From contig CALOFI010000005.1 of the NCBI GenBank assembly GCA_942492525.1, positions 64,001 to 128,000 of the forward strand: 64,000 bases of DNA, in the 5' to 3' direction. This document shows, piece after piece, positions 1,906 through 49,252 of the stretch. Source of the stretch: an uncultured Myxococcales bacterium. GTDB lineage: Bacteria > Myxococcota_A > Polyangia > Haliangiales > Haliangiaceae. The number at the start of each line of letters is the position of its first letter. The first letter of the stretch is position 1. A model generated the notes under the pieces. It saw only the letters and a list, made by a program, of their open reading frames with translations, was not told where the DNA came from and made no database searches. A program made the position numbers and the translations under genes.

Positions 1906-1908
1906 CTC

Positions 1909-12237: not shown

Positions 12238-12259
12238 TCCGCGCCGCCGGGCGCGCGGC

Positions 12260-24220: not shown

Positions 24221-24318
24221 CTCTTCCCCCTCGGAAAAAAGTCGGTAAGCAACAGGAAGACGCGGGTTACCCCGAGTCCCCGCTGGCACTGTGCCCCAGG
24301 AACCTGATCGAGATCAAG

Positions 24319-27902: not shown

Positions 27903-27938
27903 GACCGCGGCCAGCAGCGCCAGCCCCGAGCGGCCAGG

Positions 27939-28816: not shown

Positions 28817-28836
28817 CGGCGTGCCCGGCCCCGCCG

Positions 28837-30651: not shown

Positions 30652-30660
30652 GGCGGGACG

Positions 30661-31754
30661 TTACCACAGGAGCCCGAGGCCCACTCCCGTGCCGACGAGC
30701 GCGCCGGTGGCCGCGGCGAGCGGACCGGCGGGGAGCCGCCGGGTCGTGGCGGCCGCGATCGGCGCGGTGATCAGCACGATGCCGATCGTGGTGCCGTCGC
30801 CGCGGTCGCCGAGGAGCGCGGCCCACGCGGCGGCGATGGCGGTGAGCGCCGCCGGCCAGGTGGCGGCGGCGAGATCGCCGACGACGAGGGTCGCCGCCCG
30901 CGCCCAGCGCGGCGCGCGGGTCTCGCGCAACATCGCGGGCCACGCGCGCGTGGTCGCCGCGTCCGCCGACGCGGCGAGCGCGACGGTGACCACCGCGCCG
31001 GCGGTGACCAGGCGCGCCAGCTGGGCGAGCGCCTCGAGCGAGCCCTCGCCGTACCAGAAGCCTTCGTGCGCGGCGACCGAGACGGCGCAGGCCGCGAGCC
31101 AGAGCGCGACCACCGCGCCCAGCGCCAGCGCGGTGCGCGTGGTCGCGACGGCCGCGGCGAAGCGCGCGAGCGCCGCGGCGCCGCCGGCTCGACGCGCGGT
31201 CGCCGGCGACGTGGTCGTCGCGGCGCCGCCGGCGGCGGGCGCGGCCCCGGCCACCAGCTCGATCACGCGATCGACCTGGCCGCGCGTCGCGCCACCGGTC
31301 CACAGCATCGCGCCGTCGCCCGCCCGCACCCGCTCGGCGGCCGCGACGACCTCGGCCTCGGCGTCGTCGGCGAGCGCGCCGTCGACCAGCCAGACCGCGC
31401 CGCGCAGCGTGCGCCCCCGCGCCAGCGCCCGCGCGTCCGGCGACCGGACGACAGCGCCGGGCGGATGGTCGAGCGCGCGCGCGTCGGTGGCGCGGCGCCG
31501 CGGGCGAGCGCGGTCCACAGCGCCGCGGCGGCGCGCTCGGCGCCGGGTGGTAGCGGCTCGCCGCCGCGCACGACCAGCGCCGGCGCGCGCCGGACCACCT
31601 CGCCGGCGACCACCGGGCGACGCCCGGCGATCGCGTCGAGCAGGGCCGAGACGTCGGCGGCCGGGCCGTCGACGCGGACGACCTCGCCGGCGCGCAGGCG
31701 CGTCGAGATCGGCGCCATGCCCGCCCGCGCGACCACCGCGCGCAGCTCGATCAC
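30661..31754 (-). CDS. hypothetical membrane protein of the MoxR/DUF58/vWA cluster (DUF4350-like context), apparent frameshift about 31480
   Basis: GTG 31754 overlaps the upstream stop (GTGA). N-terminal part VAVIELRAVVARAGMAPISTRLRAGEVVRVDGP... is in one frame; the C-terminal part (..GRTLRGAVWLVDGALADDAEAEVV...MLWTGGATRGQVDRVIEL... plus TM helices ALALGAVVALWLAACAV.., ..IGIVLITAPIAAA..) is in another. Confidence 0.35.
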
Positions 31755-32899
31755 GGCGACTCCGGCGGCGCGCGCGGCGCGCGCGCGAGCGCGCCGGTCC
31801 AGCCGCGCGCGTCGGCGGCGACGAAGCCGCGGATCCTGTAGCTGCCCGCGCCGGGGACGGCGCCGGCGAGGCCGACGACGCCGAGCGCCCCGCCGCCGGG
31901 GTCGCCCGAAACCTCGATCCACAGCTCGTCGCCCAGCGCGGCGGCGCCGAGCAGCTCGCTGGCGCCGACCTCGGCGACGACCCAGTCCTCGCCGCCACCG
32001 GCGTCGGCGCGCACGCCGCGCACGGCGATCGCCGGCGCGGTCGCGAGCAGCAGCGGCAGCAGCGTCGCGGCCGCGCACGCGGCGACGGCGAGCGTCGCGG
32101 CCGCCCGGGGCCAGCGCCGCCGCAGCGCGACCGCGCCGAGCAGCGTCGCGGCGAGGCCGAGCCCGACCAGCGCCAGCGCGCGCGGCACCGCCGCGATCGG
32201 CGCGGTCTGCCGGGTGCGAGGCAGCGCGAGCGGCGCCGCACGCGCGCAGCGCGGCGGCGCGGCGTCGGCCACGTCGAGCCGGCACACCGTGCCCCCCGCG
32301 GCCAGGTGTCGCCGGATCGTGCGCGCGGCGAGCTCGCCGAGCGCCGCGATCGGCCGGTCGATGACCACCGCGCCGGCCCCGAACAGCGCCTGCCAGCGCG
32401 CCGGCACCGCCTCGGGCGCGACCACCACCGGATCGCCCAGCTGCTCGCCGCGGCGCCACACGTCGACGCGGGGCAGCAGCGCCGCGGCGCCGTCGGTCAC
32501 GACGATCACCGGTCGCGCCACGACCCGGACCGCCGGCACCTCGCCGTCGGCACCGTCGGCGCCGCGGCTCACGCGCACGGCGCGCGCTGGCAGCGCGCTG
32601 ACGCCCGGGCCGACCCGGGCGGCCAGCGTCACGGTCGCACGGCCGTGGGCCGCGAGCTCGATCGGCTGCGGCGCGGCGCCGGCCACCGCGACTTGCACGC
32701 GCGCGGGCATGGCGAGCCGCGAGCGCACCTCGACCACGACGACGTCGATGCCGCCGGCCGGCACGACCCCGCCGACGCCGCGATCGACGACGACCTCGAC
32801 CGCCAGGCGATCGTCGGCCCGGGCCGGCGACGGCGCGGCCAGCGCCGCGGCCGCCGCGACCAGCGCGATCAGCGCCGCCGACGCCCGCGCCGCGCCCAT
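31751..32899 (-). CDS. secreted protein with C-terminal TM helices, function unknown
   Basis: Signal peptide MGAARASAALIALVAAAAALAAPSPARA; C-terminal hydrophobic segments (ALALVGLGLAATLLGAVAL, LAVAACAAATLLPLLLATAPAIAV); 382 aa. Confidence 0.4.
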   Translation of the reverse strand: MGAARASAALIALVAAAAALAAPSPARADDRLAVEVVVDRGVGGVVPAGGIDVVVVEVRSRLAMPARVQVAVAGAAPQPIELAAHGRATVTLAARVGPGVSALPARAVRVSRGADGADGEVPAVRVVARPVIVVTDGAAALLPRVDVWRRGEQLGDPVVVAPEAVPARWQALFGAGAVVIDRPIAALGELAARTIRRHLAAGGTVCRLDVADAAPPRCARAAPLALPRTRQTAPIAAVPRALALVGLGLAATLLGAVALRRRWPRAAATLAVAACAAATLLPLLLATAPAIAVRGVRADAGGGEDWVVAEVGASELLGAAALGDELWIEVSGDPGGGALGVVGLAGAVPGAGSYRIRGFVAADARGWTGALARAPRAPPESP

Positions 32900-32904
32900 C
32901 ACCC

Positions 32905-34146
32905 TCAATTCATCGCGTCGAGCGCGTGCTCGAGCGCGAGCAGCGCGCGCGACGTGGCGATCGCCGGGTTGTTCTCCCAGTACGTCTCGTCGGTGTTGGC
33001 CCACGAGCCGTCGGGCTTCTGCATCGCGAGCAGCTTGGTGGTGAGCTCGGCCGGCCAGTCGTGCGACTGGCCCTCGGCGTCGACGAGCGTGCGGCTGCCC
33101 AAGAGGCCCAGCGCGCGCGCCATCATGTGGTGGTGGTAGTAGAGCCCCTTGAGGCCCAGGCCCGGGTTCTCGTCGACCGAGTAGTTGGCCTTGATGTAGT
33201 CGAGCGCCGCCGCGACCCGCGGATCCTGGGCGTCGGCCTGGGTGTAGAGGAAGCCGGCGATGCCGGCGTAGGTCATGCTGCCCGACGACGCGGTCGCGCC
33301 GGCCTTGGACGCGCCCGGCTTGTAGACGAAGCCGCCGTCGTTGCCGGTCCACGGCTGGTCGTTGGACTCGCTGCGGTTCTGGCAGCGCTCGAGGAACTTC
33401 TGCGCGCGGGCCAGCACGTCGGGGCGATCGGCCAGGGTCGAGTCCTTGAGCGCGTCGAGCGCGAAGTGCAGGTTCGACAGGTCGGCGTCGGGGTGGGTCG
33501 CGTCGGTGCCGTAGCCGACGCCGCCGTAGTTGGGATCCTTGCCGTCGACCTTGGTGTTCTCGCCGAACTGCTTGTCGGCCAGCCAGCGCTGGGCCTTCTC
33601 GACCAGATCGGTGTTGATGTGGGCCTTCGCGAAGGCGAGCGTCGCGATCGCGGTGACGTACACCGGGTAGTCCTTGTCGTAGATCGCGCCGTCCGGCTTG
33701 GCCAGCTTGGCGAGCGCGGTGAGGCTGGGCTCGACCCGCGGATCGCTGGCGGCGACGCCGTCGGCCGAGACCATCGCCAGCGACGCCAGCGCGGTGGTGC
33801 CCGGGTGACCGCCGATCAGGCCGCCGTCGCCGCGCGACGCGGCGAGGAAGTCGATGCCGCGCGCGATCGCGGCGTGGATCGCGACGGCGTCGGGGCCCGC
33901 GGCCTTCGCCGGGGCCGCGTCGGCCGGCGCCTTGTCGGCCGGCGTCTTGGCGCCGACCGGATCCTTGGCCGGCGCGGGCGCCGCCTCGTCCTTCTTCTTG
34001 CACGCGGGCGCGGCCAGCAGCGCGAGGCCGACCAGGGCGACGGTCGCGACGCCGCGCCGGCGACGCAGCCCGACGAGGGACAGCAACATGCCGGCGGCGG
34101 CGAACGCTCCGGCGGTCCAGATCCAGGGAACCATATGCATCTCCAT
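32905..34146 (-). CDS. membrane-anchored/lipoprotein prenyltransferase / squalene-oxidase-repeat (terpenoid-cyclase-like alpha/alpha toroid) protein
   Basis: N-terminus MLLSLVGLRRRRGVATVALVGLALLAAPACKKKDEA (hydrophobic anchor plus lipobox-like Cys). Ala/Pro/Lys-rich linker. Repeats with the QW-like pattern of squalene-hopene-cyclase/prenyltransferase repeats (QRWLADKQFGEN..DG, QKFLERCQNR...QPWTGNDGGF, LDYIKANYSVD, LLAMQKPDGSWANTDETYWENNP). Alternative starts at 34089-34146. Confidence 0.55.
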   Translation of the reverse strand: MEMHMVPWIWTAGAFAAAGMLLSLVGLRRRRGVATVALVGLALLAAPACKKKDEAAPAPAKDPVGAKTPADKAPADAAPAKAAGPDAVAIHAAIARGIDFLAASRGDGGLIGGHPGTTALASLAMVSADGVAASDPRVEPSLTALAKLAKPDGAIYDKDYPVYVTAIATLAFAKAHINTDLVEKAQRWLADKQFGENTKVDGKDPNYGGVGYGTDATHPDADLSNLHFALDALKDSTLADRPDVLARAQKFLERCQNRSESNDQPWTGNDGGFVYKPGASKAGATASSGSMTYAGIAGFLYTQADAQDPRVAAALDYIKANYSVDENPGLGLKGLYYHHHMMARALGLLGSRTLVDAEGQSHDWPAELTTKLLAMQKPDGSWANTDETYWENNPAIATSRALLALEHALDAMN

Positions 34147-34640
34147 GACGGCTGCAGGGATGCGCCCGTAGAGGGCGCGCTCGTGAAGGACATCGAGGCC
34201 CAGCGCCGCGGACGCGGCAAAGGGCGGACTTGCGGCGTAGGCGGCGGTGCGGACGGCGGGTGCCCGGGTGGCGCCGACGGCCTGCGCGAGCGCTTCACCC
34301 GGCGCGGGCGCGGCGATCAGCGCGAGCACGACGAGCGCGCTGCCGGCCGCGGCGAGCCCGCGGTCGAGGCTGGTGCGACACAGCGTCGCGGCCAGGCCGG
34401 CGGCGGCGAGCGCCTCGGCGGCGAACAGCGCGCGCGTCACCAGCAGGCCGCGCGGAGCTCGCCGGGCCCGTCGGCGAGCCGCCACGCCGCGGCCGCGAGC
34501 ACCGCGTGCGCACCGACGACGAACAGCAACAGCCGCAGCCGGGCCCGCGGGGCCTGCGCGGTCGCGCCCAGCGCGGCGTAGGCGACCGCGGTCGCCGACG
34601 CCTCGATCCAGAGCACCAGTGCGGCCTGGGCGGTCGTCAC
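34137..34640 (-). CDS. small polytopic membrane protein directly upstream of, and possibly fused to, the prenyltransferase-repeat gene (frameshift about 34440)
   Basis: GTG 34640; helices ALVLWIEASATAVAYAALGA, LLLFVVGAHAVLAAAAW, then, after a frame change, LFAAEALAAAGLAATL and SALVVLALIAAPAP. Reading runs into the prenyltransferase-repeat ORF without an intervening stop in that frame. Confidence 0.25.
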
Positions 34641-34723: not shown

Positions 34724-35596
34724 GCGCTGATGGCAGACCAACCTGAGCACGTCCTGGCGGCCCTGCTCGGCCCACGCGCGCGGCCCGACGGGCTGACCTG
34801 GCTCGACGCGACGATCGCCGAGATCGAGGTCGGCCGCGGCGAGCTGCCGGTGGCGTTCCCGGCGGTGTCGCGGCTGATCGGCCGCGGCGGGCTCGACGCG
34901 CCCGGCGCGGAGGTGGTCACCGCCGGCGGCGACACGATCGCGCTGGCGGCCTGGCGCCTCGACGACGCCGCCCGGGTCCGGCTGCTGCTCGCGGCTGCGC
35001 GCCACGCGCCCGGCCAGGCGCTGGCCACCGCCGGCCAGCTCTACGAGCACGGCGACGCGCGCGAGCGCGCCGGCGTGCTGCGCGCGCTCTCGCTCCTGCC
35101 CGGCGCCGACGACGACGCCACCGCGCTGCCGGTGATCCTCGACGCCATGCGGGTGACCCAGGGCGAGATCTTCGAGGCCGCGATCTGCGACAGCCCGTAC
35201 GCGTCGCGCCACCTACCGCAGCACGAGTGGCGCAAGGCCGTGCTCAAGGCGCTGTTCATCGGCATGTCGATCCGCCGGATCGCCCACGTCGAGGCGCGCA
35301 CCGACGCCGAGCTGGCGCAGAGCCTGCTCGACTTCGCCGCCGAGCGCGAGGCCGCGTCGCGCAGCGTGCCGCACGAGCTGTGGCCGCTGGCCGCGCGGTT
35401 CCCACCGCCCGGCCTGGCCGCCAAGCTGCTCGGCTACCTCGAGCACCCGGCGCCCGAGCACCGCGCCGCCGCGGCCGAGGCGCTGGCCGCGCTGGTGCCC
35501 GCCGATCCGCGGCTGCGCCCGTTCCTCGTCGATCGCGGCGCTCGCGAGCGCGACGACACCGTCAAGGATGCGCTGCGGCGCGCCATCGCCGGCTGA
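34724..35596 (+). CDS. EboA-like protein (first gene of ebo/edb-type clusters; no known catalytic domain)
   Basis: 290-aa soluble Ala/Leu/Arg-rich helical protein placed immediately upstream of the TatD / TIM-barrel / phosphodiesterase genes. Assignment is mainly by conserved gene context; sequence is helical-repeat-like (..VLRALSLLPGADDDATALPVILDAMRV.. / ..LLGYLEHPAPEHRAAAAEALAAL..). Confidence 0.45.
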   Translation, partial: ALMADQPEHVLAALLGPRARPDGLTWLDATIAEIEVGRGELPVAFPAVSRLIGRGGLDAPGAEVVTAGGDTIALAAWRLDDAARVRLLLAAARHAPGQALATAGQLYEHGDARERAGVLRALSLLPGADDDATALPVILDAMRVTQGEIFEAAICDSPYASRHLPQHEWRKAVLKALFIGMSIRRIAHVEARTDAELAQSLLDFAAEREAASRSVPHELWPLAARFPPPGLAAKLLGYLEHPAPEHRAAAAEALAALVPADPRLRPFLVDRGARERDDTVKDALRRAIAG

Positions 35597-35618
35597 CCCG
35601 CCTGCCCCGGAGACCCTC

Positions 35619-36488
35619 ATGCGCATCTTCGAACCCCACGCCCACATGTACTCGCGGATCACCGACGACTACGAGCAGATGTCGCTCGCCGGCGTCGAGG
35701 CGATCCTCGAACCCGCGTTCTGGCTGGGCCAGCCGCGCACCCACGTCGGCACGTTCCTCGACTACTTCGACGCCCTGCTCGGCTGGGAGCGCTACCGCGC
35801 CGCCCAGTACGGCGTGCACCACTTCTGCGCGATCGCGCTCAACCCCAAGGAGGCCAACGACGACCGCGTCAACGCCGGGGTGCTCGAGGCGATGCCGCGC
35901 TACCTCGCCAAGGACGGCGTGCTCGCGGTCGGCGAGATCGGCTTCGACGACATGACCGACCGCGAGGAGAAGTTCTTCGCCGCGCAGCTGGAGCTGGCCC
36001 GCACCCACGGCCTGCCGGCGCTGATCCACACCCCGCATCGCGACAAGAAGAAGGGCGTGCAGCGCACGCTCGACGTGCTGCGCGACGTCGGCTTCCCGAT
36101 GGAGCGCGCGCTCGTCGATCACAACAACGAGGAGACCGTCGGCATGTGCGCCGAGGTCGGCTGCTACATCGGCTTCTCGATCTACCCCGACACCAAGATG
36201 GACGAAGGGCGGATGGTCGCCGTGCTGCAGAAGTGGGGCACCGAAAAGGTGATCCTCAACAGCGCGTGCGACTGGGGCAAGAGCGACCCGCTCAAGGTCG
36301 CCAAGACCGCGCTGCGCATGAAGCGCGGCGGCTTCGCCGCGGCCGAGGTCGACAAGGTGGTCTGGCACAACCCGATCGCGTTCTTCGCGCAGTCGGGCCG
36401 CCTGGTCGAGGCCGACCTCGACGCCCGCCCGGCGCTCGACGGCGAGCTGTTCAGCGGCAACAGCATCCTGCGCGGCCAGAGTCAGTAG
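35619..36488 (+). CDS. TatD-family metal-dependent hydrolase (EboB-like)
   Basis: MRIFEPHAHMYS (HxH metal motif at N-terminus), AVGEIGFD, LPALIHTPHRD, VDHNNEE; TIM-barrel amidohydrolase pattern of the TatD family; 289 aa. Confidence 0.75.
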   Translation: MRIFEPHAHMYSRITDDYEQMSLAGVEAILEPAFWLGQPRTHVGTFLDYFDALLGWERYRAAQYGVHHFCAIALNPKEANDDRVNAGVLEAMPRYLAKDGVLAVGEIGFDDMTDREEKFFAAQLELARTHGLPALIHTPHRDKKKGVQRTLDVLRDVGFPMERALVDHNNEETVGMCAEVGCYIGFSIYPDTKMDEGRMVAVLQKWGTEKVILNSACDWGKSDPLKVAKTALRMKRGGFAAAEVDKVVWHNPIAFFAQSGRLVEADLDARPALDGELFSGNSILRGQSQ

Positions 36489-36492
36489 CGCG

Positions 36493-37620
36493 ATGCTGCT
36501 CACCGCCGCCGACGGGCGGCCGCTCCACCTCGGCTACTGCTACAACGTGCTGCCCGGCGAGACCGTGGCCGCGCTGATCGATCAGATCGCACGGATCTGC
36601 GAGCCGGTGCGCGCGCGGCTGGGCGTCGCGCGGCTGGGCGTCGGGCTCTGGATCGCGCGCGGCGCGGCCGCCGAGCTGCGCGCCAGCGCCGACGCGCTCG
36701 CGTCGCTGCGCGAGGCGCTCGACGAGGCCGGCCTGTACTGCTTCACGCTGAACGGCTTCCCGTACGGCGGCTTCCACGCGCCGCGGGTCAAGGAGCGGGT
36801 CTTCGAGCCGAGCTGGGCCAGCGGCGCCCGCGTCGACTACACGATCGACCTCGCCGAGATCCTCGCGGCGCTCTTGCCCGACGACGTCGCGGTCGGCTCG
36901 ATCTCGACGGTGCCGCTGGGCCCGGCGACGGTCGATCCGGACGCCGCGCGCCGCGGCCTGGCCCGCGCCGCCGCCGCGTTCGCCGCGATCACGGCGCGCA
37001 CCGGCAAGCGCATCGAGCTGGCGGTGGAGCCCGAGCCGGGCGCCGGCTTCGAGCGGGTCGACGCGCTGGTCGATTACCTGCGCGCGCCCGACACCGGCGC
37101 GGTCGGGGTCTGCCTGGACTGCTGCCACGCGGCGGTCGTGGGTGAGGATCCGGCCGAGGCCTTCGCCGCGATGAACCGCCACGGCATCCGCTGCGCCAAG
37201 ATCCAGATCTCCAGCGCGCTGGTGGTGCCGCGTCCAGACCTGGACATCGGCCGGGTCGGCGCGTTCGACGAGCCGCGCTTCCTGCACCAGGTGCGCAGCG
37301 AGCGCGGCGGTGCGATGGACATCCCCGAGGCGATGATGCTGCTGGATCGCGACGTGCCCTGGCGGATCCACTTCCACGTGCCGGTGCACGACGCCGATCT
37401 CGGCGAGCTGGCGACCACGCGCGACGAGATCGCGCCGGTGCTGGCCGCGGCGCTGGCCGCGCCCGGCGAGCTACCGCACCTCGAGGTCGAGACCTACACC
37501 TGGAGCATCCTGCCCGACGGACGGCGGCCCGCCGACGACGCCGGCCTGGTCGACGGCATCGCGCGGGGGCTCGCGTGGACCCTGGCGCTGCTCGCGCAGC
37601 TGGGAGCGAAGCCGGCATGA
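36493..37620 (+). CDS. xylose-isomerase-like TIM-barrel protein (sugar-phosphate isomerase/epimerase family; EboE-like)
   Basis: LGYCYNVLPGET, GLYCFTLNGFPYGG, IELAVEPEPG, VCLDCCHAAV, HFHV; the metal-binding E/D/H pattern of the AP-endonuclease-2 / xylose isomerase-like fold. 375 aa; stop overlaps the next start (ATGA). Confidence 0.65.
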   Translation: MLLTAADGRPLHLGYCYNVLPGETVAALIDQIARICEPVRARLGVARLGVGLWIARGAAAELRASADALASLREALDEAGLYCFTLNGFPYGGFHAPRVKERVFEPSWASGARVDYTIDLAEILAALLPDDVAVGSISTVPLGPATVDPDAARRGLARAAAAFAAITARTGKRIELAVEPEPGAGFERVDALVDYLRAPDTGAVGVCLDCCHAAVVGEDPAEAFAAMNRHGIRCAKIQISSALVVPRPDLDIGRVGAFDEPRFLHQVRSERGGAMDIPEAMMLLDRDVPWRIHFHVPVHDADLGELATTRDEIAPVLAAALAAPGELPHLEVETYTWSILPDGRRPADDAGLVDGIARGLAWTLALLAQLGAKPA

Positions 37621-39002
37621 GCACCCGAGCGCCCGTGGTCGTGATCGACGTGGTCGGCATGACGCCGGACCTGTTGCCGTACATGCCAAAGCTGGCGGCG
37701 CTGGGCCGCGACGGCTTCACCGCGCCGCTCGGCACGGTGCTGCCCGCCGTCACGTGCTCGGCGCAGTCGACGCTGCTGACCGGCGCGCTGCCGCGCGAGC
37801 ACGGCGTCGTCGGCAACGGCTGGTTCTTCCGCGAGCTGTCGGAGATCTGGCTGTGGCGGCAGTCGAACGCGCTGGTCGGCGGCGACAAGCTGTGGGACGC
37901 GGCGCGCCGGGTGCTGGGCACCGACGTCAAGGTCGCCAACCTGTTCTGGTGGTACGCGATGGGCGCGGCGACCGACGTCATCGTCACGCCGCGCCCGGTC
38001 TACTACGCCGACGGCAAGAAGGCGCCGGGCGTGTACACCCGCCCCGCCGCGCTCGGCCCCGAGCTGGCCAAGTGGCTGGGCGAGTTCCCGCTGTTCCAGT
38101 TCTGGGGCCCGGGCGCCGGGCTGCCGGCGTCGAGCTGGATCGCCGCGGCGGCGAAGCGGGTCTTCGACGAGCAGCGCCCCGAGCTGACGCTGGTCTACCT
38201 GCCGCACCTCGACTACGACCTGCAGCGCCACGGCAGCAAGGGCCCCGAGGCGCGCGCCGCCGCCGCCGCGATCGACGAGGTCGCCGGCGCGCTGGCCGAG
38301 CACGTCCGCGCCGCCGGCGCGACGGTCGTCGTGCTCAGCGAGTACGGCATCACCGACGTGTCGCGCCCGGTCCACGTCAACCGCCGGCTGCGCGAGGCCG
38401 GGCTGCTCGAGGTGGTGTGGAACCCGGCCGGCGAGCTGCTCGACACCTTCGCCTCGCCGGCGTTCGCGGTGGCCGATCACCAGATCGCCCACGTCTACGT
38501 CCGCGATCCGGCGATGCTGCCGCGGGTGAAGGAGGCGCTCGCCGACCTGCCCGGCGTCGCCGAGATCCTCGACGACGACGGCAAGCGCGCCGCCGGGCTG
38601 GATCACCCGCGCGCCGGCGAGCTGGTGCTGATCGCCGAGCCCGACGCCTGGTTCACCTACTACTACTGGCTCGACGATGTCCGGGCGCCGGACTTCGCGC
38701 CCACCGTCGAGATCCATCGCAAGCCCGGCTACGACCCCGCCGAGCTGCTGTTCGCGGGCGGCGGCGCCAAGGCGCGCGCCGGCCTGCGGCTGGCGCAGAA
38801 GGCGCTGGGCTTCCGCTACACGATGGACGTGATCCCGCTCGACGCCTCGGGCGTGAAGGGCTCGCACGGCCGCCTGCCCGCGCGCGACGGCGACGGCCCG
38901 GTGCTGCTGTGCAGCGACGCGCGCTTCGGCCAGGATCGCTTCGCGGCGACCGACGTGAAGGGCCTGGTGCTCGATCTCATGGGCGCCGAGGGCCGCCGGT
39001 AG
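37617..39002 (+). CDS. alkaline-phosphatase-superfamily nucleotide pyrophosphatase/phosphodiesterase (EboF-like)
   Basis: VVVIDVVGMTPDLL, PAVTCSAQSTLLTG (nucleophile Thr/Ser in the metal site), VYLPHLDYDLQRHG, VLSEYG, HVYV; matches the type I phosphodiesterase/NPP layout. 461 aa. Confidence 0.7.
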   Translation: MSTRAPVVVIDVVGMTPDLLPYMPKLAALGRDGFTAPLGTVLPAVTCSAQSTLLTGALPREHGVVGNGWFFRELSEIWLWRQSNALVGGDKLWDAARRVLGTDVKVANLFWWYAMGAATDVIVTPRPVYYADGKKAPGVYTRPAALGPELAKWLGEFPLFQFWGPGAGLPASSWIAAAAKRVFDEQRPELTLVYLPHLDYDLQRHGSKGPEARAAAAAIDEVAGALAEHVRAAGATVVVLSEYGITDVSRPVHVNRRLREAGLLEVVWNPAGELLDTFASPAFAVADHQIAHVYVRDPAMLPRVKEALADLPGVAEILDDDGKRAAGLDHPRAGELVLIAEPDAWFTYYYWLDDVRAPDFAPTVEIHRKPGYDPAELLFAGGGAKARAGLRLAQKALGFRYTMDVIPLDASGVKGSHGRLPARDGDGPVLLCSDARFGQDRFAATDVKGLVLDLMGAEGRR

Positions 39003-39019
39003 CGGCGCGATCCGCGCGC

Positions 39020-39793
39020 CTACTCGTCCTCGGGCTCGGCGGGCTCCGCGGCCGGCTCGGCGGCGAGCAGGCGGTGCAGGAACTGCTCGCGGTGGCCGAG
39101 GAAGTCGCGACTCAGCCGGACCAGCTCGGTGTCGTCGTACGCCACGGCAGCGATGCCGGTGTCGTCGAGCTGGTAGATGAGCGCGTCCGGATACGCCAGC
39201 ACCAGCGGCGCGTGGGTCGCGATGATCAGCTGCGAGCCCTGCTGCACCAGCTGGTGGATGTGCACCAGCAACGACAGCTGCCGGGCCGGCGACAGCGCGG
39301 CCTCGGGCTCGTCGAGGATGTACAGGCCGCCCGGGCCGAAGCGATGGTTCAGCAGCGCCAGGAAGGCTTCGCCGTGCGACTGCTCGTGCAGCGAGCGGTC
39401 GCCATAGCCGCCGACGCCGAGCCGCTCGATCTCGGTCGCGACGTTGAAGAAGCTCTCGGCGCGCAGGAAGTACCCGGTGCGCGGCCGGCGGGTGCGCGCG
39501 ACCCGCAGGTGCTTGTGCAAGGGCGACTCCGACGACCGGGTCTCGAAGCGGAAGTTGCCGCTGCCACCCTCGGGATTGAAGCCGCACACGATCGCGAGCG
39601 CCTCGAGGATCGTCGACTTGCCCGACCCATTCTCGCCGACGAAGTACGTGACCGCGGCCAGCGGCAGCTCGTCGAGCGCGCGCACCGCGGGCAGCGCGAA
39701 CGGGTACGCGTCGAGATCCTCGACCGTGTCGCGCAGCAGGTCGAGGCTGCGCACGAACGGCGGTGGTGTCGGGCGGGCGCGCCGGGCCGGCAT
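39020..39793 (-). CDS. AAA_21-type ATP-binding protein (SMC/RecF-like ABC ATPase without a partner permease)
   Basis: Walker A VGENGSGKSTILEAL, Q-loop/signature region, Walker B LYILDEPEAALSP, His switch IIATHAP; 257 aa. No transmembrane partner adjacent. Confidence 0.65.
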   Translation of the reverse strand: MPARRARPTPPPFVRSLDLLRDTVEDLDAYPFALPAVRALDELPLAAVTYFVGENGSGKSTILEALAIVCGFNPEGGSGNFRFETRSSESPLHKHLRVARTRRPRTGYFLRAESFFNVATEIERLGVGGYGDRSLHEQSHGEAFLALLNHRFGPGGLYILDEPEAALSPARQLSLLVHIHQLVQQGSQLIIATHAPLVLAYPDALIYQLDDTGIAAVAYDDTELVRLSRDFLGHREQFLHRLLAAEPAAEPAEPEDE

Positions 39794-39850
39794 GGCCCGA
39801 CCGTCTCACGGCGGCCGCGCACGGTGCGACATCGCGGGGCGCGCGCGGCG

Positions 39851-40237
39851 TCAGCGCGCGCCGCGGTCGAAGTCGGCCTGCGCCGCGCGGCAGGCCCGGG
39901 TCCGCCTCATGCCCAGCAGGCCGGACTGCACGAAGCCGGCGGTGCCGGCGATGAGGAACACGGCGCCCACCATGATCGTGCCGTTGAGGTGCCCGGTCCC
40001 CTCGATCGTGTTGCCCTCCGAGTCGTCGGTCGCGGCGCCGACCACGACCAGCGTCAGCCCCGCGACCGCCGCGGCGGCGGCGCCGAGGAAGTCGTGCTTG
40101 ATCGCCGGCGTCTCGGCGGTGCACGCCGGCCGCGTCGCCCACGGCCGCGGCGGCGCCGGCGTCACCGTGAGAAACGAGCAGCCGCTGGTCACGAGCGCGA
40201 GCACCACCACCAGCGAGCCTCGACCGCGCATCATGCG
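39851..40237 (-). CDS. small lipoprotein/membrane protein, function unknown
   Basis: MMRGRGSLVVVLALVTSGC lipobox, then a second hydrophobic stretch (AAAAVAGLTLVVVGAATDD, IMVGAVFLIAGTAGFV); 128 aa. Confidence 0.4.
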   Translation of the reverse strand, partial: RMMRGRGSLVVVLALVTSGCSFLTVTPAPPRPWATRPACTAETPAIKHDFLGAAAAAVAGLTLVVVGAATDDSEGNTIEGTGHLNGTIMVGAVFLIAGTAGFVQSGLLGMRRTRACRAAQADFDRGAR

Positions 40238-40363
40238 ACCATCATAGGATTGCGCCGGGCGCGGATCGACACCCATGCCGGGTAGTTCCCCGTGAGGCCG
40301 CGCGGGCCGCCGGCCGCGACCCCTGCCCCCGGGGGCGCAGGTTCGTCGTCGCAGATGCGGACG

Positions 40364-41200
40364 CTACGGCGCGGTCAGGAACTCGAAGGCGCGGCGCGCG
40401 ACGCGGACGGCGTCGTGGCTGTGGCGCGACAGCTCGAGCGTCGCCGGGCCGGCGTAGCCGACCTCGGTGAGCACGCGCATCACGGCGCGGACGTCGAGAT
40501 CGCCTTCCCACGGCACCAGGTGATCGTGGACGGGCTTGCGCATGCCCTCGACCTGGACGTTGACGATCGCGTCGGCCCAGGCGCGCACCGTGGCCTCGGC
40601 GCCGTCGGGCTCGGTGATGTGGGCGTGGCCGACGTCGAGCGTGAGCAGGAAGGCGGGGTCGTCGACCAGCGCGCGGACGCGGGCGAAGCCGGCCATGTCC
40701 TCGAGGTACATGCCCGGCTCGGGCTCGAAGCCGATGACCACGCCGGCGGCGCGGGCGTGGACGCAGACCGCGCGCAGGCCGTCGGCGAGGCGGGCGTCGA
40801 GCGCGGCGGCGGTGGCGTCGTCGCCCTCGTCAGGCGAGCCCGACCACAAGGACACCACCGACGCGCCGACCGCGGCGGCGGCATCGACGGCCTGGCCGAG
40901 GAAGGCGACGCGGGCGGCGCGCTCGGCCGGATCGCGCGACAGCAGCGTCGGCTTGTGCTTGCGCCGGGCGTCGAGCAGGAAGCGCGCGCCGGTCTCGATC
41001 ACCGGCTGCAGGTCGAGGTCGCGACACACAGCGGCGACCTCGCGCAGCTCGGCGGCGTGACCGGGCGCGAATGGATCGAGGTGGTGGACGTCGAGGGTGA
41101 CGCCCACCGAGCGATAGCCGAGCTCGGCGATCACCGCGAGGGCGTCGAGCAACCGGTGGTGCGCGAAGCCGTTGGTGTTGTAGCCGAGCCGCATGGTCAC
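40364..41200 (-). CDS. second xylose-isomerase-like TIM-barrel protein (sugar-phosphate isomerase/epimerase)
   Basis: MRLGYNTNGFAHHRL..., VIGFEPEPGM, LTLDVGHAHI, HLVPWEGDLD: the same fold signature as the 36493 gene but a distinct paralogue. 278 aa. Confidence 0.7.
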   Translation of the reverse strand: MTMRLGYNTNGFAHHRLLDALAVIAELGYRSVGVTLDVHHLDPFAPGHAAELREVAAVCRDLDLQPVIETGARFLLDARRKHKPTLLSRDPAERAARVAFLGQAVDAAAAVGASVVSLWSGSPDEGDDATAAALDARLADGLRAVCVHARAAGVVIGFEPEPGMYLEDMAGFARVRALVDDPAFLLTLDVGHAHITEPDGAEATVRAWADAIVNVQVEGMRKPVHDHLVPWEGDLDVRAVMRVLTEVGYAGPATLELSRHSHDAVRVARRAFEFLTAP

Positions 41201-41257
41201 GCCGTCTCCTCGCAGGCGCGCGCCGGCAGCGACGCGAGCGGGCCTTCCCGCGACGCG

Positions 41258-41434
41258 CCCTTCGACTCCGGGCTCGCTTCGCTCGCCCTGCGCTCAGGGT
41301 GAGCGGAGCTGGTGGTGTGGCTGCGACGAGAGGGTTCATCAGCAAGAGTCGAGCTGCAGACTGCGGGCGCGATCTCGATCACGGTCCGCTCACCCTGAGC
41401 GCAGGGCGAGCGAAGCGAGCCCGGAGTCGAAGGG
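41258..41434. repeat. perfect 49-bp inverted repeat (arms 41258-41306 and 41386-41434) separated by a 79-bp spacer; MITE/REP-like or long-hairpin RNA element
   Basis: Arm 1 cccttcgactccgggctcgcttcgctcgccctgcgctcagggtgagcgg; arm 2 is its exact reverse complement. A partial third copy of the inner motif (ggggtgagcg..gggggttcatcgcgac) lies about 41521-41567; the spacer contains gagggttcatcagc. Confidence 0.8.
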
Positions 41435-41584
41435 CGGGTTGCACACTGTCGGCCTGGAGGATGGTGTTCTCGGCGCCGGGCCTCGGCTCGCCCCGAGGCT
41501 GACCGTCGATGGAGCTCGCGCCGCTCGGGGTGAGCGTCGTCGCCACAGCGGGGGTTCATCGCGACGACCATCCCGGCTCCGCCG

Positions 41585-42475
41585 CTACGTCGGCGAGAAG
41601 AACTGCTTGAGGATCAAGGCCGGCACGATCAGCGCGGCGACCGAGACCGCCCAGAACGGGCAGCCGGCGGACGCGACGATCGCGGCGTCGATGATCGGGA
41701 TCAGGACGATTCCGCCGCCGATGGCGCGACCGGTGGACGGGCCGTCGTGGCGGTGCCAGACCGGCGCCCAGTTGCGCCAGCCCAGCGCGACCGCGAGCCC
41801 GACCCACGGCCAGGCCCACGCGCTGCGCGGCAGGCACGGGCACGCGAGCAGCGCGACCAGCACCGCGCCGGCGAGCAGGGCCAGGAAGGTCAGGCCGGTG
41901 CGCGCGCGCCGCGTGGTGTTGCCGTCGACCTCGTCGCGCGCGATGTACGTCAGGCCGGTGACGTAGAGCGCGAGCACGATGGGGCCGGCCAGCGCGATGT
42001 GCGGCCAGGCGACGTCGAGCGACAGCCCGGTGGAGATCGCCAGCGCGACGTCGAGGCCGCGGCAGCTGCCCATCACCAGCGGACCGAGCTTGGTCTTCTT
42101 GAGACCGCCATCGTAGAGGAGGATGCAGCCCGCGAGCACCGCCGCGACGATGCCGGGCGCGCGACCGATCCACGCCGCGATGGCCACGCCGCCGATCATG
42201 AGCGCCGCGCCGAGCAGCGCCGCGAAGCGCACCGAGATCTCGCCGCTGGGGATGGGCCGGGTGGGCCGCTCGACCGCGTCGATGTCGCGATCGAAGACGT
42301 CGTTGAGCACGATGCCCGACAGGTAGAGCAGGCCGGAGGCCAGGATCACCGCGCAGGCGCGATCCGGGACGGCGAGCCCGAGGCCGCGCAGCACCAGCAG
42401 GCCGGCGATCGCGTCGGCGAACGAGGTGAAGACGTTCGGCGGCCGGATCAGCCGCAGCAGCGCGCCGACGTTCAC
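41585..42475 (-). CDS. UbiA-family aromatic/polyprenyl prenyltransferase (EboC-like)
   Basis: GTG 42475 overlaps the upstream stop (GTGA). First Asp-rich motif NDVFDRDIDAVERPTRPIPSG and second DEVDG-type motif (YIARDEVDGN), about 8 TM helices. 296 aa. Confidence 0.75.
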   Translation of the reverse strand: MNVGALLRLIRPPNVFTSFADAIAGLLVLRGLGLAVPDRACAVILASGLLYLSGIVLNDVFDRDIDAVERPTRPIPSGEISVRFAALLGAALMIGGVAIAAWIGRAPGIVAAVLAGCILLYDGGLKKTKLGPLVMGSCRGLDVALAISTGLSLDVAWPHIALAGPIVLALYVTGLTYIARDEVDGNTTRRARTGLTFLALLAGAVLVALLACPCLPRSAWAWPWVGLAVALGWRNWAPVWHRHDGPSTGRAIGGGIVLIPIIDAAIVASAGCPFWAVSVAALIVPALILKQFFSPT

Positions 42476-43665
42476 GCGGCGTCTCCGTCGGCGGCGTGGT
42501 CGGCCACATCGGCGGCGTCGGCCAACACCAGCTCGGGCAGCAGGTGGGCGAGCAGCGCCAGCCACTGCCGATCGAGGCGGTGCTCGCTGGTGCCCATGGG
42601 GTTCTTGAAGAACAGCGCCAGGTGGGCGAGCACGCCGCGCTCGCCGCGCCGCGCCGCCAGCTCGACCAGGCGGATGAGATCGATGCAGAGGGGCGCCGCC
42701 AGCGCGGTGTCGCTGCCGCGCCAGGTCAGCTCCAGCGTCATCTGCGCGCCGCCGAAGCCCTCGAAGACGATGCGATCCCAGGCGACCTTCCAGTCGCCGT
42801 AGCTGGGGACGTAGTCGATGCCGACCCGGCTCTCGGGCGCGTAGCCCAGGATGGCCGCGAGCGGCGCGGCCTTGCTGCGCTGCTTGCTGGCGCGCTTGGC
42901 CGGATCGTCGAGCGCGCGGCCGTCTTCGTTGCCGAGGATGTTGTGGCTGACCCAGCTCTGCACGCGCAGCCGGCGGATCGCGAACATCGGCGCGAGCACC
43001 GTCTTGACCAGGGTCTGGCCGGTCTTGCCGTCGGCGCCGGTGTGGACCGCGCCACGCGCCAGCGCCAGCGCGTGCAGCGCGGGCAGGTCGCTGCCGGTCG
43101 ACGGCGTGAAGTTGACGTACGCCAGGCCGAGGTCGAGCGCCGCCGCCGCGTAGATGGTGCTGGCCGGCAGCCGACGCCCGGCGCGCAGCGCGGCGAACAG
43201 CGCGTCCGGCGTGGCCGGCGGCTCGTCGTCGCCCAGGCCCGCCTCGGTCGAGGCGACGTTGAGCACGACCACGCGCTGCAGCTGGTTGCGAGCGCGGAAC
43301 TCGGCCAGCTCACCGCGCACCCGCTCGAGGTCGGCCCAGCCGCCGTCGTCGACGACGCCGGCGCGGACCTCGGCCTGCGCGGCGTCGATCGCGGCGCGCA
43401 CCGCGGGCGCGTCGATCACCGCCGCGGGCAGCACGCCCTCGGCGACCAGCGCACGCGCGCCGTCGAGCAGCGAGCGCGCGCGCACGTCGTGGCCGCCGAA
43501 GACCGCGTCGCCGAACTCGACCAGCGGCAGGCCGGCCAGCGGCTCGCCCGCGGTGACGAGGCCGGTCGGCGGCAACAGGTCGGCGCGCAGCGCCGCCCAC
43601 CCGGCAAGCGTGCACACACCGACATGGCCGGCGGCGCCGACGATCCAGACCCCGAGGGACGACAT
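42472..43665 (-). CDS. myo-inositol-1-phosphate-synthase-family NAD-dependent sugar-phosphate cyclase (occupies the cyclase slot of the ebo-like cluster)
   Basis: N-terminal Rossmann GVWIVGAAGHVG; MIPS-family blocks (..NVASTEAG.., ..VNFTPS.., LGYAPESRVGIDYVPSYGDWKVAWDRIVFEGFGGAQMTLELTWRGSDTALAAPLCIDLIRL). 397 aa. Confidence 0.6.
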   Translation of the reverse strand: MSSLGVWIVGAAGHVGVCTLAGWAALRADLLPPTGLVTAGEPLAGLPLVEFGDAVFGGHDVRARSLLDGARALVAEGVLPAAVIDAPAVRAAIDAAQAEVRAGVVDDGGWADLERVRGELAEFRARNQLQRVVVLNVASTEAGLGDDEPPATPDALFAALRAGRRLPASTIYAAAALDLGLAYVNFTPSTGSDLPALHALALARGAVHTGADGKTGQTLVKTVLAPMFAIRRLRVQSWVSHNILGNEDGRALDDPAKRASKQRSKAAPLAAILGYAPESRVGIDYVPSYGDWKVAWDRIVFEGFGGAQMTLELTWRGSDTALAAPLCIDLIRLVELAARRGERGVLAHLALFFKNPMGTSEHRLDRQWLALLAHLLPELVLADAADVADHAADGDAA

Positions 43666-43713
43666 GACGGCGGACGATATCTCGTCTCCACTCCCGGTGG
43701 TAGGGTGGGCGCC

Positions 43714-44805
43714 GTGCGTCTGCTCGTCGCGCTCTCGGTGCTGCTGACCGCGCCCGCGCTGGCGCGCGCCGACGGCGCGGTCGAGGTGCCACGGACCGGC
43801 GGCCCGACGCCGACCGTCCTGTACCTGGACCGCTGTCCACCGGGCTGCACGATCACCACGGGCGCTACCGACGACGCGCGCACGGACACCTCGTCGGCGG
43901 TTCCGATCGGGGGAACTCTGAGCCCGCTGCCGCGACTCGACCTGGCGTGGGCGTCGCTGGTGCTGTGCCTGGGCGAGACGTTCGGGCCGTACGGCATCGA
44001 GCTCGCCACCGAGGAGCCCGGCCCCGACGTCGAGTACGTCGAGGTCAAGATCAGCGGCTTCCCCGAGGAGCTCGGCCTGCCGACGGGCACCCGCGGGCTG
44101 GCGCCGCGCGCCGACGACTGCACGCCGGTGCGCCGCGGCCTGGCGTTCGTCTTCGGCAACCTCTGGGATCTGAACGACATCGTCGACGCGCCGGTCGAGC
44201 TGTGCGGCCACGTGGCGCATCAGGTCGGTCACCTGCTCGGGCTCGACGACGCGCGGCAGTGCCGCGATCCGATGGTGGCCGGCGACGCCTGCACGCCGCG
44301 CCGGTTCGTCGATCAGGACGTGCCGTGCGGCGACGGCGCCGGCGCGCGCGCCTGCGCCTGCGGCGGCGCGACCCAGAACGGCCACGCCGTGCTGCGCGAC
44401 CGCTTCGGCGCGGGCGGCCTGCTGCCGCCGCCGCACGTCGAGATCGTGACGCCGACCGCGGGCGCGGACGTGGAGGACGAGGTCGCGATCGCGCTGGCGC
44501 TGGGCGTCGGCCGCCGGATCGCGCGGCTCGAGCTGTGGGTCGACGGCGCGCTCGACAGCGAGGTCGCCGCGCCCGCGACCATCGCGCCCACGTTGAGGTG
44601 GACGCACGGCAGCGCCGGCGAGCACGTGATCGAGGCGCGCGCGTTCGACGATCTCGACCGCATGGGTGGCGACGCGATCACCGTGCGCTGGCGCGACGGC
44701 GGGCTGTGCGCCGCCGCGGGCGGCGCCTCGCCGGCGACGCTGGCGCCGGTGCTGCTCGCGCTCGCGCTGGGCGCCCGGCGTCGCCGCGCCCGCGGGCGCC
44801 GATGA
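43714..44805 (+). CDS. secreted metalloprotease-like protein with MYXO-CTERM sorting tag
   Basis: GTG 43714; signal [19 protein letters not shown]; Zn-site-like [14 protein letters not shown]; several Cys pairs; C-terminus [35 protein letters not shown] (MYXO-CTERM architecture). Stop overlaps the Sir2 start. Confidence 0.5.
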
Positions 44806-45641
44806 GCGCGGCCGACGTCGCGGCGCTGGGCCGGCTGCTCGACGGCCGGCGCGTCGTCGCGCTCACCGGCGCCGGCTGCTCGACCGAGTCGGGCATCCCC
44901 GACTACCGCGGCCCGGGACGACCGCCGCGGCGACCGCCCATCCAGTACCGCGAGTTCGTCACCAGCGACGCCGGACGACGCCGCTACTGGGCGCGGGCCG
45001 CGCTGGGCTGGGCGACGATCCGCGACGCCCGCCCCAACCCCGCCCACCACGCGCTGGTCGCGCTCGAGACGCGCGGCGCGCTGGCCGGCGTGATCACCCA
45101 GAACGTCGACGGCCTGCACCACCTCGCCGGTAGCCGGCAGGTGGTCGAGCTGCACGGCGCGCTCGCGCAGGTCCGGTGCCTGGCGTGCGAGGCGCGCACG
45201 CCGCGGGCCGCGCTGCAGGCGCGCCTCGCCGACGCCAACGCGGCCTGGCTCGCGCGCGCGGCGGCCGCGCGCGCCGCCGTCGTCGCCGACGGTGACGCCG
45301 CCCTGCCCGACGAGCTGGTCGCCGACTTCACCGTGGTCGCGTGCGCCGCCTGCGACGGCGTGTTGAAGCCCGACGTGGTCTTCTTCGGCGAGCACGTGCC
45401 GGTCGCGACCGTGACCGCCGCGTGGGCGCTGTTCGACGCCGCCGAGGCGCTGCTGGTGGTGGGCTCGTCGCTCGCGGTCTTCTCGGGCTATCGCTTCGTG
45501 CTGCGCGCGGCCGAGCGCGGCGTGCCGATCGCCATCCTCAACCAGGGCCCCACCCGCGGCGACGCGGTCGCGGCGCTGCGCATCGACGCGCGCGCCGGCG
45601 AGGTCTTGCCCGCGCTCGCCGCGCGGCTGGGCCAGGCCTGA
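44802..45641 (+). CDS. Sir2-family NAD-dependent protein deacylase (sirtuin, class III/U-like)
   Basis: [26 protein letters not shown], Zn ribbon CLACEAR...[18 protein letters not shown]; 279 aa. Confidence 0.85.
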
Positions 45642-45707
45642 ACCGCCGCCACCGGGCCGGCCGCGCCGCACGCGCGGTGCGCCCGGCGTCGGCGCTATAC
45701 TGCGGGC

Positions 45708-47285
45708 TTGCCGTCACCGTCGACCACCGGGGGGTCGCGATCGTCGAAGCCCACCACGGCGGCGACCCACGATCAGATCGCGCGGCACCAGAGCGCCGCG
45801 GACGTGCTGCGCGCGCGCAGCGTGCTCGCGGTGGCGTGCGTGCTGTGGCTGATCGTCGGCGTCGCGTGCGACCTGGCGTTCCACGACGTCATCGGGCGCG
45901 GCTCGCTGGGGTTCGTCCTGGGCATGCGCCTGGCGACCACCGGCTTCCACGTGCTCGTGCTGATCGTCCTGTTCCGCCACCCGCTGCCGCCGCCGTCGAT
46001 CACCCGGCCGCTGGTGGCGATGGTCTTCCCGCTCTCGGCGCTGATGCTCACGATCATCGCCACCCGGATGGGCGGCATCGCGTCGCCGTACGTCACCGGG
46101 CACTTCGTGATCCTCAGCGTCCAGGGCGTGGCCATCGCCGACCGCTGGCAGCGCGGCGCGCCGCTCGCCGCGGCCACCAGCCTGATGTTCCCGGTCGGCC
46201 TGCTGCTCGCGGCCGCCGGCGACGAGCACCTGCGCGCGCAGCTGACCCGCAGCGGCCCGCTCGCCACCTTCATCATCTTCACCGGCGTGCTGCTGGCCGC
46301 GGCGATCGTCGTCGCGTGGGGCAGCCACGTCATGTGGTCGCTGCGGCAGAGCGTGTTCGAGAGCCGCTCGATCGGCCGCTACAAGCTGCAGCGCCGGATC
46401 GGCAAGGGCGGCATGGGCGAGGTCTGGCAGGCCCACGATCGCGCCACCCGGCGCAAGGTCGCGCTGAAGATCCTCAGCCCCGAGCACGGCCGCAGCCCGG
46501 CGGCGATCGCGCGCTTCGAGCGCGAGATCCAGGCCACGTCGGAGCTGATCCACCCCTCGACGATCCGCATCTACGACTGGGGCGTCACCGACGACGGCGT
46601 CTGGTACTACGCGATGGAGCTGCTCGAGGGCGCCGGCCTCGACGTGCTGGTCCGGCGCGCCGGGCCGCTGCCGCCGGCGCTGGTCGTCCACCTCGGCATC
46701 GGCGCCGCGCGCGCGATCGCCGAGGCGCACGGGCGCGGCATCATCCACCGCGATCTCAAGCCGGCGAACCTGTTCGTCGTGTCGCTGGCCGGCGAGGCCG
46801 ACTTCCTCAAGGTGCTCGACTTCGGCGTCGCCCGGGTCGGCGCCGAGGACGCGTCGATCACCCAGGCCGGCGCGGTGATCGGCACGCCCGCGTTCATGCC
46901 GCCCGAGGTGCTCGCCGGCGCGCCGTGGTCAGAGGCCGGCGACGTCTGGGCGCTGGCGGCGTCGCTGTACTTCGCGCTGACCGGCAAGACCCCGCGCGAG
47001 GCCGGCGCGCCGCCGCCGCCGCCGTCGGCGAGCGTCGCGGTGCCGCGCGAGCTGGACGACGCGCTTGTCCGCGCGCTCGACGACGACCCGGCGCGCCGGC
47101 CGCAGACCGGCGCCGAGCTGGCGGCCGCGCTGGTCGCCGCCCAGGCGGGCGCGTACGCCGGCGGCTTCCGGCTCGACGCCGGCGTCGACCCCGGCGTCGA
47201 CGTCGCGCTCGAGCACACCCTCGACGCCGAGCAGCCGCACACCGTCGCCGAGGCGCCGGTGGCCCGCGGCCGCCGCACCCGCTGA
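45708..47285 (+). CDS. membrane-anchored Ser/Thr protein kinase (N-terminal 6-7 TM sensor-like domain plus Hanks-type kinase)
   Basis: TM helices in residues about 40-230. Kinase subdomains [12 protein letters not shown] (Gly loop), [14 protein letters not shown] (catalytic loop), [12 protein letters not shown]. Confidence 0.75.
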
Positions 47286-47365
47286 TCCGACCGCGATCGT
47301 CCTCGGTGCGTCGGGCGGCCACGGTGGGCTTGCGCGGGCGCGGCCAACCGTCCTAGGGTGCGCGC

Positions 47366-49237: not shown

Positions 49238-49252
49238 TATCCTGGGCGCGGG

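Follow-up and report, generated by a model that had tools for sequence, protein, structure and literature searches.

An inositol-type ebo gene cluster in an uncultured myxobacterium and its probable role in the synthesis of a saccharoquinoline/thallusin-type meroterpenoid

A window of 64,000 nucleotides from an uncultured Myxococcales bacterium (positions 64,001 to 128,000 of contig CALOFI010000005.1, GenBank assembly GCA_942492525.1) contains seven linked genes, which add a new myxobacterial case to the inositol-type ebo (thallusin-pathway) clusters already known. The cluster lacks eboD and carries in its place a gene of the myo-inositol-phosphate synthase (MIPS) family, ino1, together with eboA, eboB, eboC, eboE, eboF and a gene for a second TIM-barrel protein (TIM2). 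Through these seven genes it probably directs the synthesis of a saccharoquinoline/thallusin-type meroterpenoid, a product class known from a preprint and from other phyla.

The role of ebo genes in thallusin synthesis was described in a bioRxiv preprint of May 2026 (10.64898/2026.05.21.724671). The genes track thallusin over 35 strains (27 producers versus 8 non-producers), and thallusin production was abolished in Stieleria maiorica without eboB, eboC, eboE or eboF. The quinoline part of thallusin takes up L-aspartate, and EboC from three phyla catalyzed in vitro farnesylation of 6,7,8-trihydroxyquinaldic acid ethyl ester. In canonical clusters EboD makes a C6 cyclitol/inosose precursor straight from mannose-6-phosphate; the cyclitol and L-aspartate go into the quinoline ring of a drimane-quinoline meroterpenoid, which is secreted. 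The 'Actinomycetota-type' cluster of the same preprint is devoid of eboD and includes ino1 (inositol-3-phosphate synthase), ino2 and ino3 (putative isomerases/dehydratases). Both saccharoquinoline and thallusin are made by a host of such an eboD-less ino-type cluster, Saccharomonospora sp. CNQ-490. Myxococcota are named among the phyla with core ebo genes. No cyclase was found for the pathway, and two intermediates of the bypass were left unknown. In the light of this work, two statements of the first-pass annotation of the window have lost their ground: that the product of ebo clusters is still unknown, and that a cyclase of another family in place of EboD is unusual.

The G+C content of the window is about 75%, so raw lists of open reading frames (ORFs) are unreliable. 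Coding frames were therefore chosen by a GC3 frame plot and protein families were assigned by Pfam and NCBIfam scans; nine genes at the locus are backed by both, with one frame per gene. The plus-strand unit comprises eboA (34730–35596, 288 aa), eboB (35619–36488, 289 aa), eboE (36493–37620, 375 aa) and eboF (37617–39002, 461 aa). The minus-strand unit comprises ino1 (42472–43665, 397 aa), eboC (41585–42475, 296 aa, GTG start) and the TIM2 gene (40364–41200, 278 aa). The seven genes thus form two convergent units, A-B-E-F and Ino1-C-TIM2, and not a single co-directional six-gene operon. EboE and EboF overlap by ATGA, and the stop codon of ino1 overlaps the GTG start of eboC by GTGA, which bears out the translational coupling claimed earlier. 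The earlier coordinates of all genes were retained apart from the start of eboA: the codon at 34724 is GCG, and the ATG lies at 34730.

To examine co-conservation of the two units, genomes were scanned with a seed alignment of MIPS homologs, which gave at least 80 loci; all proteins of the window were run against these loci by tblastn. Six independent myxobacterial assemblies carry all seven genes together in the same convergent layout. Ino1-EboC-TIM2 is convergent with EboF-EboE-EboB-EboA in loci L001 and L002 (two Myxococcota metagenome-assembled genomes, MAGs, from the MIPS-seeded scan), L081–83, L087 and L088. The closer relatives recovered by exact-protein look-ups, P0013 (77% identical), P0004 and P0007, have the convergent layout of the window. 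The named relatives are Kofleriaceae and Myxococcales MAGs. The 4-nt overlap of Ino1 and EboC recurs in relatives. In at least eight loci of Actinomycetota the same genes form one co-directional operon, Ino1-EboC-TIM2-EboA-EboB-EboE-EboF, the hosts including Streptomyces, Catellatospora, Acrocarpospora, Thermomonospora, Micromonospora, Actinophytocola and Solirubrobacterales. The linkage of ino1 to ebo genes is kept in 14 loci of two phyla, and among the matches listed EboA-less versions occur in Nitrospira, three haloarchaea and one Thermodesulfobacteriota MAG. Such linkage of the seven genes greatly exceeds what chance would produce. Co-conserved in the six myxobacterial assemblies and in the actinomycete loci, the two units form one system, as was proposed earlier; their convergent split, first regarded as unusual, is standard in this myxobacterial lineage.

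The plus-strand unit is of ebo type. EboA matches the NF035938 EboA_domain model with 148.5 bits (cut-off 50), and its C-terminal HEAT repeats match HEAT_2 with 35 bits; against the stricter NF035937 EboA_family model it scores 105 bits, under the cut-off of 320. It is 65% identical to the copy in L081 and 31–44% identical to actinomycete copies. EboB, a TatD-family metal-dependent hydrolase, matches PF01026 with 52.9 bits (cut-off 27); it is 80% identical to the copy in L081, 57–61% to actinomycete cluster copies and 45% to the copy in L089, and its length of 289 aa is the same in L081, L087 and L088. EboE, a xylose-isomerase-like TIM barrel, matches the TIM_EboE equivalog model NF035939 over its full length with 349.4 bits (cut-off 250) and PF01261 with 47.5 bits, and is 43–46% identical to the proteins of actinomycete loci. 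EboF belongs to the alkaline-phosphatase/nucleotide-pyrophosphatase family (PF01663, 199 bits) and is 80% identical to the copy in L081 and 56–65% identical to actinomycete copies. The earlier recognition of an ebo-type cluster is thus supported by an EboA domain and an EboE equivalog over curated cut-offs and by TatD and Phosphodiest matches over Pfam cut-offs.

Pfam and NCBIfam scans revealed no dehydroquinate-synthase (DHQS)-like gene, i.e., no EboD, in the cluster, and precomputed Pfam tables contained none within 6–10 kb on either side of the cluster in L081–83, L087 and L088. Its place is occupied, as the first-pass annotation had it, by a MIPS-family enzyme. Ino1 matches PF07994 with 140 bits and PF01658 with 112 bits, both over the cut-offs. 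The closest solved structure is Archaeoglobus fulgidus MIPS (PDB 1U1I; 203 bits, full length). In a gap-free block of the HMMER alignment, N242, K261, K265, K293, D319 and K354 of Ino1 match N255, K274, K278, K306, D332 and K367 of the A. fulgidus enzyme, which we take to be catalytic, in line with mutant PDB entries among the structure matches. Because all the catalytic residues examined are kept, Ino1 is predicted to be a working inositol-3-phosphate synthase; it differs from 1U1I in its position within a secondary-metabolite cluster. The score of 38 bits against the mycothiol INO1 model TIGR03450 (cut-off 638) indicates that Ino1 is not of the actinobacterial housekeeping type.

In a neighbor-joining tree with bootstraps, the myxobacterial ebo-linked Ino1 proteins form a clade (100%), as do the actinomycete ones (100%). 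Ebo-linked Ino1 as a clade of its own apart from ordinary MIPS was considered and found unsupported, the joint node having a bootstrap of 22%. The tree does not separate the Ino1 clade from stand-alone planctomycete MIPS. Since phylogeny does not set apart an 'EboD-substitute' clade, a dedicated role of Ino1 in the cluster rests on gene linkage.

TIM2 matches PF01261 with 122.8 bits, and the NCBIfam scan gave no match of it to the EboE model. Its nearest solved structure is UlaE, L-ribulose-5-phosphate 3-epimerase (30 bits), and it is 45–50% identical to the proteins of actinomycete loci. In a neighbor census of 84 loci of this MIPS family, TIM2 was the most frequent neighbor of Ino1 (33 loci), followed by the EboC-like UbiA enzyme (22), EboB (16), YdjY-like proteins (15), EboF (14) and EboE (11). 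TIM2 is therefore a distinct family and not the duplicated TIM barrel that had been supposed. It is placed between EboC and EboA in at least eight actinomycete operons. Actinobacterial EboA was reported to be fused to an N-terminal xylose-isomerase-like domain (Yurchenko et al. 2016, PMC5133447); we infer that the fused domain is TIM2, which fits the adjacency of TIM2 and EboA in actinomycete operons. TIM2 is probably the Ino2 or Ino3 of the preprint. Ino1 and TIM2 constitute a module recurring over several bacterial phyla and haloarchaea, which sharpens the view of the eboD bypass; the module is therefore the first target in the search for the two bypass intermediates.

Other genes accompany Ino1 in some actinomycete inositol-type loci. 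A GFO/IDH/MocA (inositol-dehydrogenase-like) oxidoreductase gene is located directly upstream of ino1 in L062 (8151–9371) and L073 (1790–2971). In L046 (5913–9815) that place is taken by genes for a ROK regulator and a sugar ABC transporter, relatives of which are present in L062 and L073. The oxidoreductase, absent from the window, is a possible extra enzyme of the bypass.

The UbiA-family prenyltransferase matches PF01040 with 66 bits. It scores 183 bits against the EboC model NF035940 (cut-off 250) and 163 bits against the SCO3242 model NF045897 (cut-off 260), the next UbiA model giving 79 bits. The NDxxDxxxD motif is kept in the EboC-like UbiA enzymes, and all Ino1-linked UbiA enzymes scanned match strongly to the EboC and SCO3242 models alone. 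Two actinomycete copies scanned exceed the SCO3242 cut-off (332 and 359 bits). The myxobacterial copies fall between the models, with 183–190 bits for EboC and 163–167 bits for SCO3242.

The synthesis of the meroterpenoid could proceed as follows. Ino1 would cyclize glucose-6-phosphate to inositol-3-phosphate, as its conserved residues suggest. Conversion of inositol-3-phosphate to the C6 cyclitol/inosose precursor could be assisted by TIM2, a barrel of the sugar-phosphate isomerase/epimerase type. The polyhydroxy-quinaldic acid core could then be built from the cyclitol and L-aspartate by EboB, EboE and EboF with help from EboA, a non-core protein. By analogy with the three homologs from other phyla studied in vitro, EboC would farnesylate this core. 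Cyclization of the farnesyl chain to a drimane would yield the secreted saccharoquinoline/thallusin-type meroterpenoid.

Several known systems resemble the cluster. It shares with the Actinomycetota-type (Saccharomonospora) cluster the lack of EboD and the linkage of a MIPS and an isomerase-like TIM barrel to eboA, eboB, eboC, eboE and eboF, and its seven-gene content is identical to that of the actinomycete loci examined (at least eight). The Actinomycetota-type cluster is one operon with TIM2 adjacent or fused to EboA, whereas the window has two convergent units with TIM2 apart from EboA; moreover, the two actinomycete copies of EboC scanned belong to the SCO3242 family and that of the window, at 163 bits against a cut-off of 260, does not. 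Both ino2 and ino3 are present in the Actinomycetota-type cluster, as opposed to one such gene found in the window, whose host is a member of Myxococcota. The canonical eboABCDEF cluster of Bacteroidota, Cyanobacteria and eustigmatophyte plastids (PMC5133447) has in common with the window the EboA domain, EboB, the EboC-like UbiA enzyme, EboE and EboF. It differs in gene order and strands and in possessing EboD, instead of which the window has MIPS and TIM2; the EboA of the window also scores under the EboA_family cut-off. The EDB cluster of Pseudomonas fluorescens NZI7, which is involved in nematode repellence, is homologous to ebo and, according to the literature, by which alone it was compared, retains a homolog of eboD and contains three additional genes.

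Some points weigh against the assignment of a saccharoquinoline/thallusin-type product. The compounds were shown from other phyla only, and from no myxobacterium bearing the cluster; the central reference (10.64898/2026.05.21.724671) is a preprint without peer review, and likeness to the Saccharomonospora sp. CNQ-490 cluster was judged by its published description alone. The myxobacterial EboC scores under both equivalog cut-offs and is just 33–42% identical to the actinomycete enzymes, so its acceptor or prenyl specificity could differ. The grouping of Myxococcota and Actinomycetota Ino1 has a bootstrap of only 22% in the neighbor-joining tree, and both nest among planctomycete MIPS. The cluster of the window has one gene of the ino2/ino3 type (TIM2) as compared with the two named by the preprint. 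Finally, an eboD gene could possibly reside elsewhere in the genome, the absence established here covering the 64-kb window only.

Of the other explanations, the formation of a distinct meroterpenoid by the same pathway logic, with another prenyl length, acceptor substitution or stereochemistry, is possible, although unlikely. The myxobacterial EboC represents a lineage of its own between the EboC and SCO3242 models, and the known products already vary: terrestrial Streptomyces make the related streptoquinolines, which carry more highly substituted quinolines, and the drimane configuration of saccharoquinoline is opposite (PMC12862604). Yet EboB and EboF are 56–65% identical to the actinomycete cluster copies, EboE exceeds its equivalog cut-off, and the EboC enzymes from three phyla took the same substrate (10.64898/2026.05.21.724671). 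A prenylated cyclitol or an inositol-derived membrane lipid, the product proposed in the first-pass annotation, is improbable. MIPS together with a UbiA enzyme that, after EboC and SCO3242, best matches archaeal prenyltransferases of the geranylgeranylglyceryl phosphate (GGGP) type (73–79 bits) superficially suggests an inositol ether lipid, and an earlier paper also predicted a prenylated cyclitol. However, labelling, deletions and EboC assays point to a prenylated, aromatized, aspartate-derived quinoline and a secreted product (10.64898/2026.05.21.724671), in which the cyclitol feeds the quinoline ring; in addition, the match of the UbiA enzyme to the EboC and SCO3242 models exceeds that to lipid prenyltransferases by over 100 bits.

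There is very little probability that the ebo proteins serve mainly to export other metabolites or to move them through the periplasm, as was proposed by Klicki et al. 2018 (PMC6282210) for scytonemin monomers in Nostoc. NCBI labels EboA and EboE 'metabolite traffic proteins', and a secreted toroid protein, YdjY-like proteins and a TonB receptor are repeatedly encountered in the vicinity. Nevertheless, thallusin was obtained from ebo-carrying cyanobacteria, N. punctiforme being among the strains tested, and the scytonemin phenotype was reread as indirect (10.64898/2026.05.21.724671); the window contains neither a scytonemin-like nor another pigment cluster. It could also be supposed that the MIPS is a housekeeping enzyme and the UbiA enzyme a generic one, both being unrelated neighbors of an incomplete ebo operon, since the MIPS keeps all the catalytic residues examined and nests among stand-alone MIPS of Planctomycetota. 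This is effectively refuted by synteny, i.e., by the linkage of the seven genes in six myxobacterial assemblies and in one operon in at least eight actinomycetes and by the conserved 4-nt overlap of Ino1 and EboC; fusion of actinobacterial EboA to an N-terminal xylose-isomerase-like domain (PMC5133447) argues in the same direction. If the assignment of a saccharoquinoline/thallusin-type product is true, Kofleriaceae-type myxobacteria from soil and fresh water would join the potential producers of thallusin-type drimane-quinoline signals; validated producers have so far come from no phyla other than Bacteroidota, Actinomycetota, Pseudomonadota, Planctomycetota and Cyanobacteria. The current understanding is not overturned; the pathway described in 2026 is extended.

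Between the convergent units lie 1.36 kb, in which two minus-strand genes are located: one for a small lipoprotein-like membrane protein (39851–40276, 141 aa) and one for an AAA_21/ABC-type P-loop ATPase (39020–39793, 257 aa; PF13304, 54.7 bits). The lipoprotein-like ORF matched no family in Pfam, NCBIfam or PADLOC. A defense-system reading of the ATPase was rejected as unsupported, PADLOC having given only partial, generic P-loop matches. At the same junction the 3' ends overlap by 17 bp in L081, and gaps of about 0.5, 1.1 and 3.4 kb occur in L088, L002 and L001, respectively. About 2.7 kb with an HNH endonuclease and a DUF4377 protein are found there in L087, so that the junction looks like an insertion hot spot. 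Homologs of the lipoprotein and the ATPase were found in none of the related loci examined; both genes, which had been singled out earlier as noteworthy, are hence incidental insertions.

The 385-bp spacer between eboC and the TIM2 gene contains an inverted repeat (41250–41442) with 58-nt arms, 97% complementary, and a 77-nt spacer; its RNA fold has an energy of −160 kcal/mol (z = −13). The repeat is lacking in L081, L087 and L088, because EboC and TIM2 overlap there or are at most 19 nt apart. A search of the window, of 91 loci and of two metagenome scans yielded no further copy and thus lent no support to the repeat being a mobile element. The ATPase, the lipoprotein and the inverted repeat are strain-specific later insertions outside the pathway.

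Divergently from eboA, an alpha/alpha-toroid protein is encoded on the minus strand (32905–34440). Its start is uncertain (ATG at 34146, or a site near 34440 if the 511-aa database entry P0121 is followed); the protein is N-terminally anchored and would be membrane-anchored or secreted. It matches PF13243 with 25 bits. The AlphaFold model (pLDDT 95.5) has the alpha/alpha-barrel fold of the class-II terpene-cyclase beta-domain, the top Foldseek matches being the monodomain cyclases 8PAJ and MstE, the drimenyl-diphosphate synthase SsDMS and squalene-hopene cyclase (SHC), with TM of about 0.6. Like the toroid model, MstE (6SBB) and 8PAJ are single alpha/alpha-barrel beta-domain folds (Foldseek probability 1.0), but identity to them is 13–19% and the toroid protein is predicted to be secreted or membrane-anchored. 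The family-wide motif is DLSN with one invariant Asp, which HMMER puts at SHC D374, with Ser/Asn at D376/D377; the catalytic Asp of SHC is D376. The subgroup of the window and other myxobacteria carries DADLSN, the DxD of which is the motif type used by MstE.

Homologs of the toroid protein adjoin ebo genes in L002, L081–83 and L084. They are found inside ebo-like operons with a YdjY-like secreted protein in L067 (11966–13156) and L089 (792–1910); in three loci of planctomycetes, L047 (8842–9981), L053 and L064, the homologous gene immediately precedes ino1. Homologs beside or inside ebo/Ino1 clusters thus span four phyla. None was found near the cluster in L087 and L088; a 412-aa neighbor of EboA in L088 was ruled out as a homolog by alignment. 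Ebo genes are missing from the neighborhood of most family members. In the window, the toroid gene heads a long minus-strand operon (24319–34440) with a MoxR AAA_3 ATPase (28837–29934) and very Ala/Arg-rich VWA-like proteins, which parallels the toroid...MoxR-DUF58-VWA operon of L084.

The toroid protein is a concrete candidate for the cyclization step, to which no enzyme is assigned. Given its fold, which is that of monodomain class-II meroterpenoid cyclases, and the homologs within ebo-like operons of other phyla, it might be the enzyme that forms the drimane in thallusin/saccharoquinoline synthesis, or a periplasmic binder dedicated to that pathway, with a low probability. The MoxR/VWA operon context, the absence from L087 and L088, the location of most members away from ebo genes and the motif DLSN instead of DxDD argue against a direct role.

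YdjY-like genes (PF27149) were recognized via precomputed matches and BLAST. In 15 loci, mostly of Planctomycetota without ebo genes nearby, such a gene for a secreted protein is positioned 1–2 kb upstream of the MIPS homolog. Examples are L089 (1919–2650), L067 (11136–11945), L053 (about 6100–6750) and about 12 more planctomycete loci, and the window has a weak match at 16130–16693. This suggests an association of MIPS with a periplasmic protein.

Among the scanned flanking ORFs no gene for farnesyl diphosphate synthase or another enzyme of terpenoid-precursor synthesis was found, several small ORFs at 1–15,000 having been left out of the scan. The right flank of the cluster (43705–52291) encodes a Big_7 secreted protein with a weak MYXO-CTERM match, a Sir2 deacetylase, a Ser/Thr kinase, an OPT transporter and another Ser/Thr kinase, and is syntenic with L088 (GCA_011526095.1, contig WYBA01000067.1). 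On the other side, a minus-strand gene (20132–24313) encodes a 1393-aa secreted protein with PKD and Ig-like domains, whose C-terminal Gly-rich, hydrophobic and Arg-rich tail resembles a MYXO-CTERM sorting signal; it is adjoined by a radical-SAM gene (18755–20131) and an OmpA-family gene (17010–18104).

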